In this document: piece by piece, positions 38,353-49,527 of the stretch
Position numbering within the stretch: the stretch's first letter is position 1
How the letters are laid out: each line of letters opens with the position of its first letter
DNA from: an uncultured Clostridia bacterium
GTDB taxonomy: Bacteria; Bacillota; Clostridia; TANB77; CAG-508
DNA: 49,535 nt
Assembly: GCA_944388665.1 (NCBI GenBank)
Contig: CALXJQ010000002.1
Location: 1-49,535, forward strand
Direction of reading: 5' to 3'
The notes under the pieces: model-generated
Databases searched by the model: none
Seen by the model: the letters and a program-made list of their open reading frames with translations, nothing else
Told to the model about the DNA's origin: nothing
Position numbers and translations under genes: made by a program

Positions 38353-38679
38353 TTAATCAGATTCGTCATTATATTCTTTTACCCTTGTATTAACACCGTC
38401 AATAATTTTATATTCTCTTTTTGAATTCTTATAAACCTTTTTTTGCATCTCGTCTTCTAAGTCTACTCCCAAAATTTCTGATAATCCCAATAAATATATT
38501 GCAACATCAGCCAACTCTTCTCCTAAGTCGTCTTTCTTTTTTCTCCACGCCTCATAAGCTTCAGCCATTTCTCCATAAGTTAAGCAGAATTCTTTGTTAA
38601 TATCTGTTACATTAAATCCCTTATCTACTTTATTTTGATATATTTCTTTTTGCAGTTTCTTTAAATCTATCATATTCAT
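38353..38679 (-). CDS. MazG-like nucleoside triphosphate pyrophosphohydrolase
   Basis: LTYGEMAEAYEAWRKKKDDLGEELADVAIYLLGLSEILGVDLEDEM, the EExxE/D-type MazG helix pair. Confidence 0.8.
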   Translation of the reverse strand: MNMIDLKKLQKEIYQNKVDKGFNVTDINKEFCLTYGEMAEAYEAWRKKKDDLGEELADVAIYLLGLSEILGVDLEDEMQKKVYKNSKREYKIIDGVNTRVKEYNDESD

Positions 38680-38685
38680 TACCTC

Positions 38686-39294
38686 CTAATTTAAAAAATT
38701 CATTACTAAATCTATGATTACATCCTTTTCTTTAGGATTTGACTCGGCTATGAGTAATGTTAATGCAGCTAATGTGTTATTGTCAATTGTTTGTTTTCCA
38801 TTTTTATATAAAATTCCGTAGAAATTTAAGAAATATATAAACAATGTAGCTGCAATTCTTTTATTTCCATCTGCAAATACATGATTCTTAACAATTAGAT
38901 ATAGAAAGTTCGCAGCTTTTTCTTCTATACTCTTATAAATATCGTGTCCGTCAAAGCTTTGATAAATATTTCCTATTATTGACTCTAATCCATTATCTCT
39001 TTCTATTGCAAATAATGAACTTTCTTCATTAAATCTTAATTTATTTATAATTTCTATACAATCTTTATACTCAATTTTTCTTTCATCAATATTTCCTTTT
39101 ACTTTTTTTAGAGTTCCATGGTCATAATCATCTAATAAATCTAAAGCTTTTGAATATTCGCCAATTACTTTTAATATTTCTTTAGCATCAGAGCCTTCTA
39201 GTCTTTCATCGATTCTATTAGCAATATCAATTAATTTTACTGTTTTTTCTAAATATTCTAGTCTTTTTTGATTGACTGCATATCCTTTTAACAT
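38686..39294 (-). CDS. RhuM-family / Fic-DOC domain protein, N-terminally truncated
   Basis: Fic-type motif HVFADGNKRIAATLF. The frame stays open upstream to 39354, encoding AKSKNGVIFRKWATKVLKDYMLKGYAVNQKRL, the RhuM core motif. The usual ~130 N-terminal residues are absent. Confidence 0.7.
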   Translation of the reverse strand: MLKGYAVNQKRLEYLEKTVKLIDIANRIDERLEGSDAKEILKVIGEYSKALDLLDDYDHGTLKKVKGNIDERKIEYKDCIEIINKLRFNEESSLFAIERDNGLESIIGNIYQSFDGHDIYKSIEEKAANFLYLIVKNHVFADGNKRIAATLFIYFLNFYGILYKNGKQTIDNNTLAALTLLIAESNPKEKDVIIDLVMNFLN

Positions 39295-39325: not shown

Positions 39326-41117
39326 CTAAAAATTACACCATTCTTTGATTTTGCTCACCCTATCTGATGACAGGTCAGTATTAAAAGAATTTTCAAGGTC
39401 TGATGAAATGGTTGGAATGAAAAACTTTTTTTTGGATTCTCCTATTTGACTATTTAAGAAATATATTTCAATGTTCTCTCCATCACCATAGATTTTTTCT
39501 ATAAATAAGCCTACAATATCTCTTTTAGTTTTTAAATCAAATGTATGGAATATGTCGAAAGAATTATCAATAACTTTTAGCAAATCTTTTGCTGTTTGCA
39601 TTTCAGAATTATTATTAATCTTTGTTTTATTTTTTATATTTGCTATTTGTGTTTCTAAATTTTGTTTTTGTTCTTTTAATTCTCTCAACTTATAATTTAC
39701 CATATCTATTAGATCAATGTCAATATACTGTAGTTTCTCTACTAATTTGTCAATTTCTTCTTTGTTTTTATTATATGCATTTTGTAAGAACTCTAATTCG
39801 CTATTAGAATTATCGTTATTCTTAATTGATGCTATTTTTTGAAGTTCTTTATATATTTCAGAATTAGGAACAAAAGTATTCTTCATTATTTCAAATACCT
39901 TGTTATCAATTTCACTTCCAACATTTAGGGATTGACACTTATGTCCTCGTGATTTTTCTTTTAAGTTACAACAGTATCTATAATAAGCATTTCCATCTTT
40001 ATCTGCTTTTCCCATATTTTTCGCTCTCATAAGTGAATTACATCTTTTACACCTTAATAAACCTGTTACAATAGTATTAGTCTTTTTCAATATGGCTGCT
40101 CTATATTTCTTATCAGCATTTTTTTCAATAAGCATTTGAACAGCAACCCAATCTCTCCCGTCAATAATTCCTTGATGCAGACCAACTGCAATTATCCATT
40201 CTTCTATTGGTTTTTCTTTTCCCCCATACCCACTTGTTTTGTTGTATGTCAAAAAACCGTATTTGCCATTATTATTTTTTCTGTCATCATCTTCACGGTA
40301 AATAAATATTCCTTTTGAATTAAAATACTCCATTGTATCATTGTCGTTTTTAGCATATACTGGATTTGTAAGTATTTTTCTTATAGCACATATTCCAAAA
40401 TATACCCCCTTTCTTGTTCTTATATTATTATTCATTAAATATGTCAGTAATTTTGACATTGATTTTAATTCTAAAAATTTAGCAAATATTAATTTAACCT
40501 TGCTTAATTCTTCATCATTTATAACAAGTTTAGATGCGACTTTACTTTTTTTAGATATACAGTCCTTATCTTCCTCACATACCTCTACTTTTTTATATCT
40601 TTCTGTGCTAAATCCGTAAAGGAGCTTCGCCTCCTAACCATGTACCTGTTTTTGATAATTCAAATAAGTTATCTCTAATTCTTTCTGCAATTACTTCTCT
40701 TTCTAATTGTGCAAATACAGATGCTATATACATCATAGCTCTTCCCATTGGTGTTTTAGTATCAAATTGCTCTTTTATTGAGATAAACGAAGTTTCTAAT
40801 TCATTTAATTCATTCATTAAAGAAGAGAAATCTGCTATATTTCTACTAATTCTATCTAATCTGTAGCAAATGAGAATATCATAAGGATATTTTCTTTCAT
40901 CTTCTAAAAAATCTTTAAATCTTGGTCTATCTAAACTTCCTCCTGAAAAGCCTTCATCTTCATATATTACAATTTCTACATCATATATATCTTCTGGATA
41001 ATTTCTTTTTATATATTCCTTTGCAAGTTCAATTTGGTTTCCTACTGAATCTCCTTTATCTGTATATTTTGATTTTCTTGAGTATATCGCAATTCTTATT
41101 TTTATTTTTTCGTTCAT
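39326..41117 (-). pseudogene. large serine recombinase interrupted by a 1-nt frameshift near 40617-40620
   Basis: AAGGAGG precedes ATG 41117. IAIYSRKSKYTDKGDSVGNQ (catalytic Ser), ICYRLDRISRN, then ...GTWLGGEAPLRI-stop. Deleting one T gives GGEAPYGFSTERY..., continuing into ORF 39326..40459. That part has a recombinase domain, the zinc ribbon CKRCNS...CCNLK...HKC and a coiled coil. Confidence 0.8.
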
Positions 41118-41357
41118 TTTTGCCTCCTTTTTTATGATTTTAAAAAAGGAGGCTTGTCTATTCAAATGTATAAAATTAACTGTTTTTTAATAATTGTAGA
41201 ATTGACTTTAATATATTTTCTTTATCAGTTTTTGTTATTGGTAAACTCTGCACATATTCTTTTATTAAAATCGCTTTTACAAAGGCAAGATTATGTATAT
41301 ATGCATCACTTCCTTGATTATCTATTTTTATATTCATCTTCTATCATCTCACATAAA

Positions 41358-41789
41358 TTATCTTTCTTTTCCTCTATTCTCTTTTCGTTTTGCTTTTACT
41401 TTCTCTTCCATTTCAAAAAAACTTCTCAAAATTCTATAATTAATTTTTCCAGTTTCTCCTAATGTTGTAAATCTATCTCCTATTGAAATTACATCAACAT
41501 CATTTGCTAATGCTTTATCAATAAAAGAGAAATAATCTTTTCTATTATTTCCTAAATGTTTAAATTTAAGTAAAATCACAATATCTACCAACTTATTTTC
41601 AATTAATCTATTTATTTCCTTTATTTGTTCATTATCTTTTTTTATTTTACCAGTATAAAGATAAATATGTTGTAAATTCCATTCTTTGTTATTTGTTTGT
41701 TCTATAAAATTTTTAATATTTTTTATGGCATTTTCCCCTGTATTTATTCCCATATCCGAAAAAAAGCCATAGGCAATTACTCTTTTCAT
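41358..41789 (-). CDS. stand-alone resolvase-like domain protein with degenerate catalytic residues
   Basis: KRVIAYGFFSD corresponds to the resolvase YARVST motif. VDIVILLKFKHLGNN corresponds to DxxxVxxLDRLGR, with both Arg lost. ISIGDRFTT...GKINYRILRSFFEMEE matches the core fold. There is no HTH or recombinase C-domain. Confidence 0.6.
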   Translation of the reverse strand: MKRVIAYGFFSDMGINTGENAIKNIKNFIEQTNNKEWNLQHIYLYTGKIKKDNEQIKEINRLIENKLVDIVILLKFKHLGNNRKDYFSFIDKALANDVDVISIGDRFTTLGETGKINYRILRSFFEMEEKVKAKRKENRGKER

Positions 41790-42979: not shown

Positions 42980-43456
42980 TTAATTTTTTAAAAATTTTCG
43001 TATATTAACTATTCCTTTTCGTATAGTTTCACTTACAGCTTGGTGTGATGTTTTCTCTAATTTTGCAATTTCTTCTACAGTTTTATCTTCAAAATAGTAT
43101 AGCTTTATTCTTCTTTTTTGAACTTCTGATAAACAATTAATTGCCTTTTTTAATTGCTTGTTTGTTGTATTAGTTTCTACTATTTCTTCTACATCTACAG
43201 GCTTATGTAATATTCTTTTATTTAAAGTGTTTTCAAATACTTCTGAATGTTCTATATGATTATCGTATTCATTTAATTCTGATAAGTCATCTAATTCAAA
43301 TTGATTCATTGCTTCATATATTTCTTGACCTATCTTTATAATTTGTTTATGTCCTTCCCCATCTTTAAATATTGCATAATATGTATTATTTTCTTCATCA
43401 TGCAATAAAGTATATGGATTATCTTTATATTTCCTTCTTTTTGGTCTTTTCGCCAT
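42980..43456 (-). CDS. sigma-70 region-4 (HTH) domain protein typical of Firmicute mobile elements
   Basis: CLSEVQKRRIKLYYFEDKTVEEIAKLEKTSHQAVSETIRKGIVNIRKFL is a region 4.2 HTH. The N-terminal half is unrelated to sigma region 2. GGAGGT RBS. Confidence 0.7.
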   Translation of the reverse strand: MAKRPKRRKYKDNPYTLLHDEENNTYYAIFKDGEGHKQIIKIGQEIYEAMNQFELDDLSELNEYDNHIEHSEVFENTLNKRILHKPVDVEEIVETNTTNKQLKKAINCLSEVQKRRIKLYYFEDKTVEEIAKLEKTSHQAVSETIRKGIVNIRKFLKN

Positions 43457-43995: not shown

Positions 43996-44712
43996 ATGCG
44001 AAAAGTGCTTATTGCTAACCATGATATTGACCAGAATAAGCAACTCTGCCAATATCTTACAAATGATAAAAGATTTGAAATAACCGAAACAACAGATGGA
44101 AAAAGTACATTGAATAAATATCTTGAAATAAAGCCAAATGTTTTAATTTTAGATACAAATTTTAAAGATATGAATTGTATTGAAATTATTAATAGACTTT
44201 CAATGACTATTGAAGAAAAAAGAAACTGTAATACTATACTTGTAGTGGATAAGTCAAACGAAAATATTAAAATTACCAATATGGCAAAAGTATATAAGGT
44301 AATTGAATATTCTGATTTAGACGATTTATTTAATACAATTAATGAGATATGCTCTTACTCGGAATATGAGGAATTAACTGAATTCGACATTGATAAGCTA
44401 TTCTTGAAATTAAAAATTAAACTAAACTCTAATGGTGCTGATTATTTAAGAGAATCAATTACTCAATGCTATTATTATCCGAATTTATTGAAAAAATTAG
44501 ATGATATTTTCTTTATGCTTGCCAGAAAACATAATAAGACAAATGATGCAATTAGGTCTAGTTTTAGGTCAGCATTAGAGCCTTTAAATAACTTTAGAGA
44601 TACGATTGATTATCCAATTATGAAATATTTTGATTATGGTTGTAAAATTACCCCTCAAAGATTTTTAGAAATTGTTGTAATGTATTTACACATAATAAAA
44701 AATAAGAAATAA
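43996..44712 (+). CDS. Spo0A paralogue: degenerate receiver domain plus Spo0A_C-type DNA-binding domain
   Basis: AGGAGG RBS. N-terminus KVLIANHD...KPNVLILDTNF...ILVVDKS has REC layout with the acidic DD pair replaced by NH. C-terminus GADYLRESITQCYYYPNLLKKLDDIFFMLARKHNKTNDAIRSSFRSALE parallels Spo0A GYMYLREAI...[33 protein letters not shown]. Confidence 0.7.
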   Translation: MRKVLIANHDIDQNKQLCQYLTNDKRFEITETTDGKSTLNKYLEIKPNVLILDTNFKDMNCIEIINRLSMTIEEKRNCNTILVVDKSNENIKITNMAKVYKVIEYSDLDDLFNTINEICSYSEYEELTEFDIDKLFLKLKIKLNSNGADYLRESITQCYYYPNLLKKLDDIFFMLARKHNKTNDAIRSSFRSALEPLNNFRDTIDYPIMKYFDYGCKITPQRFLEIVVMYLHIIKNKK

Positions 44713-44754: not shown

Positions 44755-45933
44755 TTAATGGTTCTCTATATATTCTTTATAGCTTTTCATAATATCGTTA
44801 ATTTCAGAAGAATTTACTGGTTCTGTTACAATAGAATTAAATTTTCTACCTATTATATTATATACCTTTTCTATATCATTATCATTGATGGAATTATCTG
44901 TAATCAAATTGAATACAGGAACATCATTTTTTAAGTTTTCTTTTGTTTTTTCTATCATATTAACTCCTGTTTCAACATCATACTTTGCAAACACCATTTC
45001 AGGTTTTAGATTTACTATTTTTTGGTATGTGTCCTCACCATTTATTGCAGTTCCAACAATTTCTACAAAAGGAAGTTGATTTATTGAATCGACTATTTGC
45101 TCTCTAATTTGTTCTTTGTTATGAGCGATTAATGTTCTAATTTTATTAGATGAATTAATTTTGTCAAAATCTATATAATCTTGTTTTAGAGCATTTGCAA
45201 AATAATGATCCTTTCCGTTTTCAGTTCTAATAACATCTGCATTTGGAAGTACAACTATGCTTTTTTCAAACTCATTTTGTTTTTTATATTCTACCTTTTT
45301 TATATTCTCAAATGTTTTTAAACTTTTAATTCCATTTTCTAATTCTTCTTCCGTTATTTCAAATAGTTTCTCGTTTTCTAATGCCCTCTCTCTTATAGGC
45401 ATAAATTTTAAAAATTTCCACTTTTCAATTTTATAATTATTTAAAAACTCCCCTAATTCTTCTAGTTTATTTACATTTTGCTTACTTACTACCGTATTTA
45501 TTCCAATTTTAATTTTCTTATTTTTTGTTTTTTCTAGCAAATTCTTGATAATTTCAAAATGGTTATTTTCTTTTCCTAAAGCTGTATTTATATCATTTTC
45601 GATAGAATCAATTGACAAATTTATCTCATCTAGTATATTTAATATGTCATCTACATATTCAGTATTATTTTTAGATAAGAATATTCCATTAGTTACAAGT
45701 TTGTTGTGTAATCCCATTGTTTTTGATTTTTTCATCAAATCTCTGACATTAGGATAAAGGACAGCCTCTCCTCCAGTCCATGTAATATGATTAATTCCAT
45801 TCTTTACTAAATTATCTAATACCTTTTCATTTTCACTATAAGACAAATCAGGTATATTAGTGAATCCAAAACAATATTTACATCCTTGGTTACATTTTGT
45901 TGTTATCTTCCAACATACTTTCTTCTTAACCAT
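44755..45933 (-). CDS. viperin-like radical SAM enzyme fused to a C-terminal Spo0A-type pseudo-receiver domain
   Basis: AGAGGA precedes ATG 45933. Matches to viperin motifs: [18 protein letters not shown] (CX3CX2C), [55 protein letters not shown] (cf. RWKVFQ). Residues ~275-392 ([12 protein letters not shown]...[26 protein letters not shown]...VFNLITD...) follow a CheY/Spo0A receiver layout with degenerate acidic pocket. Confidence 0.7.
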
Positions 45934-46021
45934 TTTAATCCTCTTTTCATATATAAAATTATACATTAATATTATATATGAGTTTCATAGAAAATACTAT
46001 TCTAAGATTTTTAAGGATTGT

Positions 46022-46063
46022 TAAAAAAAGCATAACAAAAAATATCCTATGTTAAGGATATTT
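46022..46063 (-). terminator. terminator after the LysR gene
   Basis: AAATATCCT / AGGATATTT stem overlapping the stop codon, followed on the minus strand by T-runs. Confidence 0.55.
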
Positions 46064-46938
46064 TAATGTTTTAAATAATTATTAATAAATTCTTTATCTG
46101 CTTTTGTCAGTTCGTCTTTTAAATGAATTAGATTTAATTTAATACTTGGAAGCTCTATTGGTAATTCTACTTCATATAATTCATTATTATCTAATTCTGC
46201 CTTTACTGCTTGTTTTATTACATAGGCTATACCCATATTCTTTTTAACTGCTTGAACTCTTATTTCTGTAGCATCACATATCATATTTGCATTTATGTTT
46301 ACATTGTATTTACTTAATATCTCTTTTAACCTTTTTGTTGTTCTTGTATTTTCTAAATTTAAAATGCAATTCAAATTTTCTAATTCGTTTATATTTGAAA
46401 TAGTTAAAGGAGTTTTAGATACAAATATATTATTAATTGTTGCCAACTCTTCACATACAATATTATTAAGTTCTATGGAAACATCTGTTATTGCGAAATT
46501 TATCTCGTGGTTTCTTAACAACTCAAGAATTTTGTTTGTGTCTACTTCGCATATAATTGTGAACTTGATTTTTGGAAAAACTTTTTTTACTTTTTCTATT
46601 TTCTCCATTAAGAAATAACTTGTTAAATGTGATGGACAAGCAATTTTTATATTTGCACTTGACATACTATTTTTATCTTGTGCCATTTTTTCAGCAAAAT
46701 CAAAACTTGAAATAGATTTATGCACTATTTCATATAATTCTTTACCGTTTTCCGTTAATGTTACACCTTTACTTTCTCTGTTAAATAATATCAAGTTTAA
46801 TTGTTTTTCTAAATTTGATATTTGCGTACTTATATTAGCAACAGATAATCCGTCTAGTTTATCAGATGCTTCATTATAACTTTTTGATTCTGCAACTTTA
46901 CAAAAAATCTTATATAAATTCAAATTCACATTAGACAC
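46063..46938 (-). CDS. LysR-family transcriptional regulator
   Basis: N-terminal wHTH LYKIFCKVAESKSYNEASDKLDGLSVANISTQISNLEKQLNLILFNRESKGVTLTENGKELYE and a C-terminal substrate-binding fold. GTG start. Confidence 0.85.
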   Translation of the reverse strand: MSNVNLNLYKIFCKVAESKSYNEASDKLDGLSVANISTQISNLEKQLNLILFNRESKGVTLTENGKELYEIVHKSISSFDFAEKMAQDKNSMSSANIKIACPSHLTSYFLMEKIEKVKKVFPKIKFTIICEVDTNKILELLRNHEINFAITDVSIELNNIVCEELATINNIFVSKTPLTISNINELENLNCILNLENTRTTKRLKEILSKYNVNINANMICDATEIRVQAVKKNMGIAYVIKQAVKAELDNNELYEVELPIELPSIKLNLIHLKDELTKADKEFINNYLKH

Positions 46939-47026: not shown

Positions 47027-48106
47027 TTATGTATTTTGTTGTTTTTTATACCATAATTCTGCTTTTCTTATATCATATTTTGTTCCAGTTTTTAGTTTAA
47101 ATGACTTCACTAATTCAATTAAGTTTTTAATTTCTTTTTCGTCAGGATTTTCTTTTTTAGTTTCTATTTCTAAAAATATTCCTAAATGATCAATAACTTG
47201 TATAAATACAATATAGTTTTCATTTTCGTAACGATAGTTTTTATCTATCATTCTTAAAAATCTAGTAAATCCTAAACTATTAAGCAATTTTTCGGCATTA
47301 TTTATATCATCTATTTTTAATATAGTTTTTTCTGTTCCTATTTCAAATCCTTCAGAATTATACGCTCTCTTTTTAGAAATAATTTGCTTATCGTTATCAT
47401 TGGTATAACGAATAATTAGTGTATCTGTTATACTGCCATTTTGTGGTACATATTGTTTTGTTTTTTGGTTACACATATAAATATCATCTAAAGTAAATTC
47501 TTCAACATAATTGAAATTATTACTTTCTAACTTCTGTTTAATACTATCTAATTCTTCAAATACTTCACAAGTAATTTCAGTATTATTAATATTTACCTCT
47601 TCCCTATCCTCTGCATTTGTATATAATTTTGATTTTTTTTCTAGTAATACAAAGTTGCAAGAAATATTTGTAAAGAATGGGATTTTTAGTTTAACTACAT
47701 TTCTATATATTTTTTTAGCTTTTGAATAGATTATTTCTTTATTGTCATTTATAAAATCACTTTCTGCTTGTAATAAATCTTTATACTTTTTTCCTCTAGC
47801 ATTAAAGTCTAACAATTGTATAGCATTTAAAGGAACAGGTATCATTTCAGCAAATCTTATTATAGATACATTTTCTTTTTTTCTGTTTTCAACTCGTATA
47901 AAACTAGGATTATCTTTATATTTATTATAGCTGGCTTTATATGAATAAAGAGGAGCAAAATATAAATGATTTTCTACTTTTAATACGATTCCAATATAAG
48001 GTCTTTTATTTTCTTTATTCCAACTTACATGATTATCAAATTGGCTTAAATATTCTATATATTCATCAGCTACAATATAAAATTTTAATGTTTCATTTTC
48101 TCCCAT
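47027..48106 (-). CDS. type III TA toxin (ToxN/AbiQ family endoribonuclease) fused to a C-terminal CYTH (CyaB/triphosphate-tunnel)-like domain
   Basis: AAGGAGAAAAAG precedes ATG 48106. The N-terminal ~165 aa read LKFYIVADEYIEYLSQFDNHV...RPYIGIVLKVENHLYFAPLYS...IIRFAEMIPVP...CNFVLLEKK and match AbiQ/ToxN. The C-terminal ~190 aa read LIIRYTNDNDKQIISKK...LGFTRFLRMIDKNYRYENENYIVFIQVIDHLGIFLEIE..., fitting the CYTH pattern ...LGF...K.R..Y......V.LD.V..LG.F.EIE. Confidence 0.75.
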   Translation of the reverse strand: MGENETLKFYIVADEYIEYLSQFDNHVSWNKENKRPYIGIVLKVENHLYFAPLYSYKASYNKYKDNPSFIRVENRKKENVSIIRFAEMIPVPLNAIQLLDFNARGKKYKDLLQAESDFINDNKEIIYSKAKKIYRNVVKLKIPFFTNISCNFVLLEKKSKLYTNAEDREEVNINNTEITCEVFEELDSIKQKLESNNFNYVEEFTLDDIYMCNQKTKQYVPQNGSITDTLIIRYTNDNDKQIISKKRAYNSEGFEIGTEKTILKIDDINNAEKLLNSLGFTRFLRMIDKNYRYENENYIVFIQVIDHLGIFLEIETKKENPDEKEIKNLIELVKSFKLKTGTKYDIRKAELWYKKQQNT

Positions 48107-48126
48107 CTTTTTCTCCTTTATAAACA

Positions 48127-48160
48127 AAACAGGGTATATTTCTACACCCTGTTTGAATTT
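48127..48160 (-). terminator. terminator between the antitoxin repeats and the toxin gene
   Basis: AACAGGGT / ACCCTGTT stem (48127-48152), followed on the minus strand by TTTGTTTAT. This matches the ToxIN-type layout. Confidence 0.6.
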
Positions 48161-48161
48161 T

Positions 48162-48269
48162 AAATCTCCCTACTCAAGGCAAGGGTTTTCCTAATGTAAA
48201 TCTCCCTACTCAAGGCAAGGGTTTTCCTAATGTAAATCTCCCTACTTAAGGCAAGGGTTTTCCGAATAG
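48162..48269 (-). ncRNA. ToxI/AntiQ-like antitoxin RNA: three tandem 36-nt repeats
   Basis: The plus-strand unit AAATCTCCCTACTCAAGGCAAGGGTTTTCCTAATGT occurs at 48162-48197 and 48198-48233 (identical). A third copy at 48234-48269 has 4 substitutions. The units are head-to-tail with no spacers, directly upstream of the toxN-like gene. Confidence 0.8.
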
Positions 48270-48300
48270 CAACCATAAGATTGCTCTTACTAGTATATTC

Positions 48301-48329
48301 ATTATACAACATTTTTATAACAATGTCAA
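48301..48329 (-). promoter_or_regulatory. consensus promoter driving the repeats and toxin
   Basis: On the minus strand: TTGACA (48329-48324), a 17-nt spacer, then TATAAT (48306-48301). Confidence 0.65.
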
Positions 48330-48346: not shown

Positions 48347-48679
48347 TCAAGAAACTTTATACAAATATTTAGCAAAATATTTGCAACATTTATCATAGAT
48401 TTTATCTACTTTATCCTGTATTTTTTTATATTCATTTTGTGATACACCTGTGCTGTTTAAATCTTTAGTGTATTCTAAATCAAGTTCAGACATAGTATCA
48501 TCTCTATCATAAGCACCCACATTTATCATAAATATTTCAAAATCATATTGAGTATAAGTCTTATCTTGAACTTCTATATCTAACTTTGACAATACTTCAA
48601 TGTCTTTTTCATTTAGTTCATTTTTTAGATTTATTATTTTCTTTTCCATATATTCTTTATGCCATTCCTCATAATTCAT
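48347..48679 (-). CDS. hypothetical protein
   Basis: GGAGGGGAGAGAGG lies upstream of ATG 48679. Acidic 110-aa protein. No family recognised. Confidence 0.5.
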   Translation of the reverse strand: MNYEEWHKEYMEKKIINLKNELNEKDIEVLSKLDIEVQDKTYTQYDFEIFMINVGAYDRDDTMSELDLEYTKDLNSTGVSQNEYKKIQDKVDKIYDKCCKYFAKYLYKVS

Positions 48680-49302: not shown

Positions 49303-49527
49303 TTGTTCGGCTCTAATATAAAGAAATATCGAGAATTGAAAGGACTTTCTCAAAGGGACTTATCTGACAAATTAATTTTGCTTGGCGTAAACCTATATCA
49401 CTCTGACATTTCCAGAATAGAGTGTAATACACTATTCATAAGAGATTTTGAGCAAAAAGCAATTTGCAAAGTTCTTAATATTAGTTATGAACAATTATTT
49501 GAAAATACTGATAAATATTTTGATTAA
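49303..49527 (+). CDS. XRE-family helix-turn-helix regulator
   Basis: TTG start. NIKKYRELKGLSQRDLSDKL is an HTH_3 motif. Divergent from the YcxB-like gene. Confidence 0.7.
   Translation: MFGSNIKKYRELKGLSQRDLSDKLILLGVNLYHSDISRIECNTLFIRDFEQKAICKVLNISYEQLFENTDKYFD

Follow-up and report, generated by a model that had tools for sequence, protein, structure and literature searches.

A ToxIN/AbiQ-type toxin-antitoxin locus of uncultured gut Clostridia with a ToxN toxin fused to a CYTH-like protein

The window analysed here is a stretch of 49,535 nucleotides (nt) from an uncultured Clostridia bacterium (assembly GCA_944388665.1, contig CALXJQ010000002.1). Its minus strand carries, at positions 47027-48329, a locus with the organisation of a toxin-antitoxin (TA) system of type III, in its ToxIN/AbiQ form, whose toxin gene encodes a protein of 359 amino acids (aa) composed of an N-terminal ToxN/AbiQ endoribonuclease domain and a C-terminal CYTH-like (triphosphate tunnel) domain. 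To our knowledge, ToxN/AbiQ type III toxins are regarded as single-domain RNases that are controlled only by their RNA antitoxin. A preliminary description of the same DNA had reported all the hallmarks of a ToxIN/AbiQ locus on the minus strand; indeed, the promoter, the repeats, the terminator, the ribosome-binding site (RBS) and the ToxN domain were all recovered, with features lying within 2 nt of the positions given there (Table 1).

Organisation of the locus and of its toxin

The promoter precedes the repeats, and the terminator separates the repeats from the toxin gene, which is the layout of a type III TA locus. The promoter had been called a perfect TTGACA-17-TATAAT element, which the promoter scan confirmed, and the same promoter is kept 5' of the repeats in homologous loci. 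The hairpin terminator and the RBS announced ahead of the toxin gene are likewise in place. The terminator is the sole terminator-like site in 1.9 kb (shuffled mean of 0.2) and is conserved among homologous loci, and the homologues carry the same RBS (AAAGGAGAAAAAG). In the centroid RNA fold of the leader, two helices only were obtained, namely the terminator and the hairpin located between the promoter and the first repeat, which may be a candidate for stabilisation of the 5' end or for a processing boundary. A counterpart of this hairpin, with another sequence (e.g. AGTAATCGTATGATTACT), occupies the same place in homologous loci.

The array detected by Tandem Repeats Finder (48161-48267; period of 36 nt, 3.0 copies, 97% matches, score of 200) falls inside the range published by Blower in 2012 for the toxIN family, i.e. 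repeats of 31-62 nt in 1.9-5.6 copies (PMC3401426). Three 36-nt repeats had been described, two of them identical and one with four changes; the three units and the identity of units 2 and 3 hold, and unit 1 differs at five positions, not four. Tandem repeats (2.3-3.1 copies) are encoded at the same position in all 30 further ToxN-bearing loci tested. Across the homologous loci, the period and the sequence of the repeats track the ToxN subtype: 36-nt units accompany the subtype of the window (75-100% identity), a 34-nt unit accompanies a subtype at 48% identity and a 33-nt unit accompanies a subtype at 45-47% identity.

Pairing within the repeats was assessed on 18 distinct units of 36-38 nt from eight loci, unfused ToxIN loci included; MAFFT misaligned the 37-nt units at their 5' end, out of register, and pairs were counted by script and by hand instead. 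Two interleaved stems with compensatory changes were found, with 123/126 cells paired, a count that is inflated by the related loci. Stem 1 occurs in five variants (CCCU:AGGG, CCCC:GGGG, CUCC:GGAG, CCUU:AAGG and CCUC:GAGG) and stem 2 in three (AGG:CCU, CGG:CCG and UGG:CCA). This covariation supports the ability of the repeat units to form an H-type pseudoknot, the kind described for ToxI (PMC3401426), and the data give comparative support for a new ToxI pseudoknot family. With Rfam, no match reached the gathering score anywhere in the window, and around the repeats no ToxI family came up at E<=10. ToxI sequences are too divergent for that library.

The N-terminal half of the toxin is a ToxN/AbiQ-type RNase domain, as had been proposed. 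Indeed, (i) the Pfam ToxN_toxin model (PF13958) matches residues 7-162 with an E-value of 3e-39 and 135 bits, against a cut-off of 25, (ii) the PADLOC AbiQ model matches at 1.3e-43, (iii) ToxN and AbiQ chains of the PDB match this half at 6e-19 to 1e-16, and (iv) Foldseek retrieves the structures 4ato, 7d8o, 2xd0 and 4glk. The active-site residues of ToxN are K33, T52, S53 and K55 in E. coli/Pectobacterium numbering (PMC8860590). The equivalents R35, S55 and K57 are invariant across the family, as are G39 and A51-P52-L53, and an arginine at the K33 position is also present in E. coli clusters 4 and 5 (PMC8860590).

Compared with ToxIN of Pectobacterium atrosepticum, Bacillus thuringiensis and E. 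coli, and with AbiQ-antiQ of Lactococcus, the locus shares the promoter-repeats-terminator-toxin order, repeats of about 36 nt in about three copies with a covarying pseudoknot, and the ToxN fold (27-31% identity in structural alignments) with the conserved active-site Ser and Lys. It differs by its toxin, which has 359 aa instead of about 170 since a complete second protein is attached, by a Tyr at the T52 equivalent, and by its chromosomal location in uncultured gut Clostridia, beside a viperin-like cassette. All the sequence-level features of type III TA membership are present except a single-domain toxin of about 170 aa, here replaced by a longer protein with a second folded domain, and the residue at the T52 position.

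A CYTH-like domain had also been predicted in the C-terminal half. This prediction is upheld by NCBIfam, by the PDB and by structure modelling, and not by Pfam, whose CYTH model gave no match to the C-terminal half even at E<=10. The best NCBIfam match is cyaB (TIGR00318; 7e-11, 42-45 bits), below its cut-off of 57.95, and SaTTM, a Sulfolobus triphosphate tunnel metalloenzyme (TTM), was matched (7ns8), the E-value being 1.5e-5 for the single sequence and 2.3e-7 for the family profile. An AlphaFold2 model built on 23 homologues has a mean predicted local distance difference test score (pLDDT) of 82.5, with values of 85-96 over most of residues 180-350, and contains the predicted eight-stranded tunnel fold. 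Its top Foldseek matches in the PDB are the SaTTM structures 7nsd and 7nsf (E-value of 1.6e-12, target template modelling (TM) score of 0.84-0.86), followed by other small CYTH proteins and class IV cyclases. Linker residues 167-173 have a pLDDT below 50, and the whole model has a predicted TM score (pTM) of 0.55 with no confident domain interface; these values fit two folded domains held together by a flexible linker.

The motifs of this half were sorted as in the work of Vogt et al. on CYTH enzymes (PMC8233210). The ExExK signature is degenerate, in line with the preliminary description: the first strand reads E177-I-T-C-E181 (TEITCEVF), i.e. ExTxE, with an invariant T179 and with E at position 181 in 33/34 fused sequences, where an outgroup with a Pfam CYTH match has K. 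The central Arg of xRxR is replaced by Ile231; class IV cyclases also have a hydrophobic residue at this place (PMC8233210). The DxY (D208-I-Y210) and strand-8 ExE (E313-I-E315) motifs, which are of the phosphatase type (PMC8233210), are intact and aligned to DIY and EIE of SaTTM, and E313, E315, D208 and Y210 do not vary among the 34 fused and 56 stand-alone sequences compared. Of the residues lining the tunnel, E177, T179, D208, Y210, R233, K245, K260, E313 and E315 are kept in 34/34 fused sequences, and R247 and K317 in 33/34.

With SaTTM (Saci_0718) and the other small CYTH/TTM proteins (PF01928), the domain thus has in common the eight-stranded tunnel, a size of about 185 aa, DxY, the strand-8 ExE and the basic residues on the opposite wall, whereas it has E-I-T-C-E in place of ExExK, Ile in place of the central Arg of xRxR, and no Pfam CYTH match. 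With the class IV adenylate cyclases (CyaB, YpAC-IV; TIGR00318) it shares its best NCBIfam match and the hydrophobic central residue, although this match is sub-threshold (42 versus 58 bits). Class IV cyclases are defined by HFxxxxExExK and by ExA on strand 8 (PMC8233210). A class IV cyclase, one of the identities put forward for this half, is contradicted by these motifs and was rejected: there is no HF, the residues upstream of the first strand being V-N-I-N-N-T, and strand 8 has ExE, not ExA. Judging from the motifs and the model, the C-terminal half is a CYTH-fold domain that is neither a canonical TTM nor a class IV cyclase.

This domain belongs to a wider subfamily of proteins of about 190 aa, with a first strand of the form E-[IV]-T-x-[EQ]-[VI]-F (P0185-P0330), so that the data define a CYTH subfamily in which ExTx[E/Q] replaces ExExK. 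Among 1.84 billion representatives, 677 proteins match with an E-value of 1e-3 or less and 199 with one of 1e-10 or less. Their length is about 190 aa in nearly every case, and more distant members pass the Pfam CYTH model (P0189, 28.9 bits; P0199, 27.0 bits). Of two relatives (P0204 and P0328), one runs into a Ham1-like domain and the other into an HD domain, both of them nucleotide hydrolase families, which is a weak hint that the ligand could be a nucleoside triphosphate (NTP). In addition, a divergent fused lineage (P0038; 372 aa, 21 member sequences) has a CYTH half of full length that has lost E313, E315 and K245, and in which the domain may be retained for a non-catalytic role.

Table 1. 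Position of the toxin locus features and of the neighbouring genes in the window
Feature	Position	Strand	Basis or remark
Sigma-70-type promoter, TTGACA-17-TATAAT	48301..48329	-	12/12 consensus matches (promoter scan)
Leader hairpin AGCAAUC...GGUUGCU, 7 bp, between promoter and first repeat	48268..48285	-	Centroid helix (RNA fold)
ToxI-type antitoxin array	48159..48264	-	Pseudoknot register: 48264-48229, 48228-48193, partial 48192-48159
Intrinsic terminator, between repeats and toxin gene	48127..48154	-	12-bp stem with 4 GC pairs; T tract to ~48121
RBS, AAAGGAGAAAAAG	48107..48119	-	Directly 5' of the ATG at 48106; read from the sequence
Toxin open reading frame (ORF), 359 aa, uninterrupted	ATG 48106; stop codon 47029-47027	-	
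ToxN/AbiQ endoribonuclease domain, residues 1-166	47609..48106	-	Pfam, PADLOC, PDB, Foldseek
Linker, residues 167-176	47579..47608	-	5' untranslated region (UTR)/Shine-Dalgarno region that the CYTH gene formerly had, now translated
CYTH-like (triphosphate tunnel) domain, residues 177-359	47030..47578	-	Foldseek SaTTM, TIGR00318, 7ns8
LysR-family regulator	46063..46938	-	Pfam HTH_1 and LysR_substrate
Viperin-like radical SAM enzyme with C-terminal receiver-like domain	44755..45966	-	PADLOC pVip 8.5e-39, 224/262 positions
Divergent response regulator, Spo0A_C-like output	43996..44712	+	Pfam Response_reg 3.4e-6 and Spo0A_C 4e-4, both sub-threshold
MazG-like gene	38353-38679		
Fic/DOC gene	38686-39294		
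Serine recombinase in three ORFs	39326-40459, 40608-41165, 41358-41789		
PemK/MazF toxin, 198 aa	41792-42388		
Sigma-70 region-4 protein	42980-43456		
Small ORF	49303-49527		XRE-type helix-turn-helix look, by eye

Conservation and origin of the fusion

A survey of the distribution of the fusion, made by searching NCBI, ENA and Logan assemblies with the whole protein, yielded about 35 clusters of 352-372 aa with 99-100% query coverage and 47-98% identity. Intact forms dominate, and the largest intact clusters have 88, 128 and 137 member sequences. A scan of species-representative genomes yielded 32 loci, all of them from metagenome-assembled genomes (MAGs) of uncultured gut Clostridia (mouse, rabbit, chicken and human). 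When fused genes are compared with one another, the ratio of nonsynonymous to synonymous substitution rates (dN/dS, Nei-Gojobori) takes values of 0.04-0.23 in each of the two halves, ToxN and CYTH. The preliminary description had left room for an artefact, in which a missed stop or a frameshift joins two genes into one long ORF. An error of sequencing or assembly, in favour of which nothing was found, is refuted, as the same fusion occurs in independent assemblies of many samples in NCBI, ENA and Logan, and species-level genomes supply 19 distinct DNA sequences in which it is uninterrupted. Purifying selection on the full-length fusion, which some 35 clusters share, excludes a missed stop, a frameshift or a chimera.

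No fused form is present among 209 plasmid and four phage records with ToxN homologues. Likewise, no ToxN-CYTH fusion was found in the literature searched, in which subscription journals are thinly covered and absence is not proof; the preliminary description knew of none either. In the 2012 census of type III systems, the toxIN toxins range from 70 to 288 aa and there is no mention of fusions (PMC3401426). The two-domain ToxN-CYTH architecture thus appears to be undescribed, in that we did not find it.

Both halves have close relatives that are encoded separately. On the one hand, a search with residues 1-169 retrieved at least 40 clusters of canonical unfused ToxN (161-172 aa, 70-82% identity) that end in ...LLEEKSKLYQ*, and whose genes belong to solitary ToxIN cassettes in unrelated places, for example before rnpA or inside a polysaccharide locus. 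On the other hand, a profile search with the C-terminal half retrieved about 60 clusters of stand-alone CYTH-like proteins of 185-200 aa, which start with M-K-x-I-E-I-T-C-E. At the codon level, the linker of the window (GAAGAGGTAAATATT) can be set against the corresponding region of the stand-alone gene L061 (AAGAGGTAAAAATTTATG): stand-alone genes read AAGAGGTAAAAATTT ATG AAA GAT ATT GAA ATT ACT TGT GAA and the window reads GAA GAG GTA AAT ATT AAT AAT ACT GAA ATT ACT TGT GAA, the ancestral ATG having become ATT (I174) in the window and ATA in other clades. Since the linker DNA matches the Shine-Dalgarno sequence and spacer of stand-alone genes, the linker is a former Shine-Dalgarno region read in frame, and this comparison of sequences shows how the fusion came about: translation ran past the ToxN stop codon into what had been the 5' UTR of a CYTH gene. 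A Shine-Dalgarno-like GAAGAGG is retained seven nt 5' of the ATT of I174 (linker DNA 47585-47600, minus strand, residues 169-174), and one may conceive of weak internal initiation at this ATT that would yield CYTH protein in free form.

Similar linkers connect three ToxN/ToxI subtypes to one CYTH family. In several lineages of fused genes (L010, L031-L037; L018, L020, L021), the synonymous divergence (dS) is 0.02-0.07 in the ToxN half versus 0.10-0.36 in the CYTH half of the same gene. This lower dS implies that the toxIN module was exchanged by recombination more recently than the rest of the gene, with the reading frame left intact, and indicates that the recent horizontal exchange was confined to the toxIN module.

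ToxN of the same clade (about 71-78% identity) is also fused in frame to CN_hydrolase (nitrilase-like), ATP-grasp and PAS proteins (L050:78-1349, L051:143-1102 and P0037, respectively), the CN_hydrolase partner keeping its own Met. The CN_hydrolase and ATP-grasp contigs begin within cognate 36-nt ToxI repeats and carry the terminator and the RBS, an observation that covers these two contigs and not the PAS contig of 1,058 bases. For these two fusions an assembly chimera was considered and is unlikely, since the contigs start in cognate repeats and the junction lies at the natural end of ToxN. The ToxIN cassettes of the window clade seem prone to capturing a downstream gene.

The fusion can also be undone. 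L047 (4790-5010) still has the promoter, the terminator, the RBS and an ATG, along with two repeats in decay; the linker and the CYTH-like sequence follow directly, ToxN being deleted in frame. To judge by this arrangement, L047 is clearly a natural deletion derivative whose CYTH-like gene now lies under the former toxI signals. The assumption that a stand-alone CYTH gene at the same locus is always ancestral is thus only partly right. Three further loci with linker-like N-terminal tails (L005, L038 and L040) are probably secondary too, while an ancestral-type CYTH start is present in L045, L060 and L061.

The viperin-like cassette and the possible roles of the two halves

Downstream of the toxin gene, the LysR-family regulator has a promoter-like site of its own (46990-46962; 11/12 with a TG extension) and is followed by the viperin-like radical SAM enzyme and by the divergent Spo0A-like regulator. 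The best PDB matches of the radical SAM protein are viperin-like enzymes and its tail matches the VraR receiver. It also matches NCBIfam viperin_w_prok (4.6e-34, 118 bits), below the cut-off of 180. The enzyme resembles those of prokaryotic viperin (pVip) loci in that it matches pVip models and has viperin-like structures as its best PDB matches; it differs by falling below the NCBIfam viperin cut-off, by its added receiver-like tail, and by having a LysR regulator, a Spo0A-like regulator and a CYTH-like gene as companions rather than a nucleotide kinase.

Synteny was surveyed with a tblastn map in 36 species-level loci (the window, L005, L009, L010 and the 32 loci of the genome scan). The CYTH-like gene is followed by LysR and then by the viperin-like gene in 29 of the 36, the window included, and the divergent Spo0A-like regulator comes next in 25 of those 29, where the contig reaches far enough. 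This order is found with a fused ToxN (window, L009, L010, L018-L037) and without ToxN (L005, L038, L040, L043, L045, and also L047, which was read separately), and LysR identity across the cassette loci is 42-62%. In L045, the cassette accompanies a CYTH start of the ancestral type, which places the association before the fusion. The data hence define a viperin-like cassette of gut Clostridia (CYTH-like gene, LysR, radical SAM-receiver and Spo0A-like regulator) of which no description was found; neither the viperin-CYTH association nor the viperin-receiver fusion turned up in the same literature search.

In our opinion, the locus is best explained as a working ToxIN/AbiQ type III module whose toxin is fused to a complete CYTH-like protein of about 185 aa that would keep an autonomous role, a reading to which we give a probability of roughly 0.6. 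The CYTH-like protein is encoded by the first gene of the conserved cassette (CYTH-like, LysR, viperin-like radical SAM-receiver, divergent Spo0A-like regulator). Comparative sequence analysis establishes the architecture of the locus, the cognate structured repeats, the purifying selection on both halves and the read-through origin. It also indicates, together with the model, that the halves may be autonomous: the linker, once part of a UTR, is disordered, each half has close relatives that are separate proteins, the dS of the ToxN half is much lower than that of the CYTH half in several lineages, unrelated partners have been captured, and ToxN has been cleanly deleted. From the read-through origin and from the separate working of the halves elsewhere, it follows that co-expression is at least as likely as allosteric coupling.

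According to this explanation, a consensus promoter would drive the leader hairpin, the three 36-nt units, the terminator and then the 359-aa ORF. As in the homologous systems, i.e. AbiQ and the ToxIN loci of Pectobacterium, Bacillus and E. coli, the RNase half would cut the repeat transcript into units, and the processed units would bind the RNase and hold it in an inactive ribonucleoprotein. During infection, a halt in host transcription would let the labile RNA decay and free the RNase to act on cellular and phage RNA, as in ToxIN, for which release upon arrest of transcription in infection is described (PMC8860590; also the part of PMC13064643 that cites Guegler and Laub 2021). More tentatively, the CYTH half, on its flexible linker and with its own ligand tunnel intact, may do the same job as its stand-alone relatives, and would most probably bind or hydrolyse an NTP-type ligand connected with the viperin-like enzyme. 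The fusion could mainly tie the synthesis (through the toxI promoter and the attenuating terminator), the dosage and the location of the CYTH-like protein to the ToxIN ribonucleoprotein, without allosteric switching of the RNase by the CYTH half being required. Different toxIN alleles were later swapped in by recombination with the fusion unbroken.

Several observations weigh against this explanation. At the T52 equivalent, the window clade has a Tyr (Tyr54, ~47945-47947) and its sister subtype a Phe, and the T52V replacement abolishes the activity of E. coli ToxN (PMC8860590). Tyr54 is also found in canonical unfused relatives, and is therefore not linked to the fusion; the active-site chemistry or the RNA specificity of these enzymes may differ. 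Processing of the repeats, neutralisation, toxicity and any activity of the CYTH half are read across from homologous systems. The link with the cassette is not universal, since three fused loci (L014, L015 and L017) and the stand-alone L001 lie elsewhere and the largest stand-alone clade (P0074, P0084) is found in housekeeping contexts; an obligatory functional link between CYTH and viperin, considered as a candidate, is weakened by this clade and by the three fused loci devoid of the cassette. Moreover, many of the cassette-bearing loci come from related MAGs, so their counts are not independent. Finally, and against mere co-expression, the fusion has outlasted the exchange of three toxIN subtypes as well as moves into other genomic contexts, of which there are at least two and probably three (L014 and L017; L015 with a frameshifted toxN), and E181 (33/34) and K289 are constant in fused forms and variable in stand-alone ones. 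This persistence and this constancy hint at a specific advantage of physical linkage.

Such an advantage would be expected if the toxin were gated by the CYTH-like domain in the manner of a sensor. Binding of a triphosphate (an NTP, the 3'-deoxy-3',4'-didehydro-NTP (ddhNTP) product of the viperin-like enzyme or a phage-induced nucleotide) would then alter the affinity of ToxN for ToxI or its RNase activity and provide a second input; a second input or output is what the preliminary description had suggested. This possibility is the most serious of the alternatives but is clearly less probable than autonomous halves. It agrees with the fusion having been kept in frame through toxIN allele swaps and moves to new contexts, with the constancy of E181 and K289 in fused forms, with the ExTxE strand and the Ile in place of the central Arg of xRxR, which fit binding better than canonical two-metal hydrolysis, and with the conserved viperin-like neighbour. 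However, the ExTx[EQ] strand is present throughout the stand-alone subfamily and is hence no adaptation to fusion, the linker is a disordered former UTR and AlphaFold gives no confident interface between the halves, ToxN of the same clade is a canonical single-domain toxin that also fuses to unrelated enzymes, and L047 indicates that ToxN can be removed with the CYTH gene intact. CapRel(SJ46), in which an extra domain on the toxin chain is reportedly both antitoxin and sensor, offers a conceptual likeness, with a toxin domain and an extra C-terminal domain on one chain; in the window, by contrast, the antitoxin would still be the RNA repeat array and the extra domain a candidate regulator at most. 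In a more speculative variant, which we consider rather unlikely, the CYTH tunnel would bind or process the viperin-like product, or sense a collapse of the NTP pool, and so set, by way of the physical link, the threshold for RNase release in a two-layer defence.

It is improbable that the domain acts as an RNA 5'-triphosphatase of the Cet1 branch that works together with the endoribonuclease and, by converting 5'-triphosphate ends, feeds cleaved or primary transcripts to 5'-exonucleolytic decay. In favour of this role, the CYTH/TTM superfamily has an established branch of RNA triphosphatases (PMC8233210), the domain is fused to an RNase, and acidic ExE and basic K/R tunnel residues are conserved; yet the closest structures are class IV cyclases and small TTMs of archaea and bacteria rather than enzymes of the Cet1 type, the ExExK needed for metal-dependent hydrolysis is not intact, and stand-alone relatives are joined to Ham1-like and HD nucleotide hydrolases rather than to RNA-processing domains. 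Still less credible, and already disfavoured, is a neutral accident that has left the CYTH half as a passenger without importance, or a decay of the entire locus. This ToxN clade does have other read-through fusions, to unrelated genes, truncated or frameshifted variants occur (P0028, P0030, P0031, P0036, P0045, P0046 and L015) and P0038 has no E313, E315 or K245, but the CYTH half of fused genes has the same low dN/dS as the ToxN half, its pocket residues are invariant (34/34) and intact forms dominate, including the largest clusters.

Whichever role the CYTH half has, the interest of the locus lies in the fusion and recombination of defence modules and in a possible tie to a viperin-like system. 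Through read-through, an entire protein encoded next to a ToxIN cassette can be captured by it, the fusion being kept under selection across many species, and this capture is compatible with swapping of the toxin and antitoxin alleles. If the halves are independent, the locus would be a worked example of defence gene fusion and recombination, of modest mechanistic interest. Should there be communication between the CYTH half and the RNase, a type III toxin would for the first time have an input or output in the form of a small molecule, and there would be a direct experimental handle on the triggering of such toxins. If the two-layer scheme holds, one polypeptide would couple the synthesis of chain terminators to abortive RNA cleavage.

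Other genes around the locus

The neighbourhood and the family context described above go beyond the observations of the preliminary description. The window is chromosomal, encoding UvrB, SecA, Rho, GMP synthase and a P-type ATPase, and the toxin locus lies in what looks like an accessory or mobile island that extends from about 38.3 kb to the end of the window, the remainder being housekeeping chromosome. Besides the cassette, this island encodes the MazG-like, Fic/DOC, serine recombinase, PemK/MazF and sigma-70 region-4 genes listed in Table 1. In plus-strand order, the sigma-like gene is followed by the Spo0A-like regulator, the radical SAM-receiver protein, LysR, the ToxN-CYTH/ToxI locus, two unknown ORFs and the small ORF close to the end of the window.

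Just upstream of the toxI promoter, an ORF of 110 aa without family match is encoded on the minus strand (48347-48679); in some homologous loci (L018:4751-5348, L019, L023), this position is occupied by two tandem paralogues with 31-35% identity.

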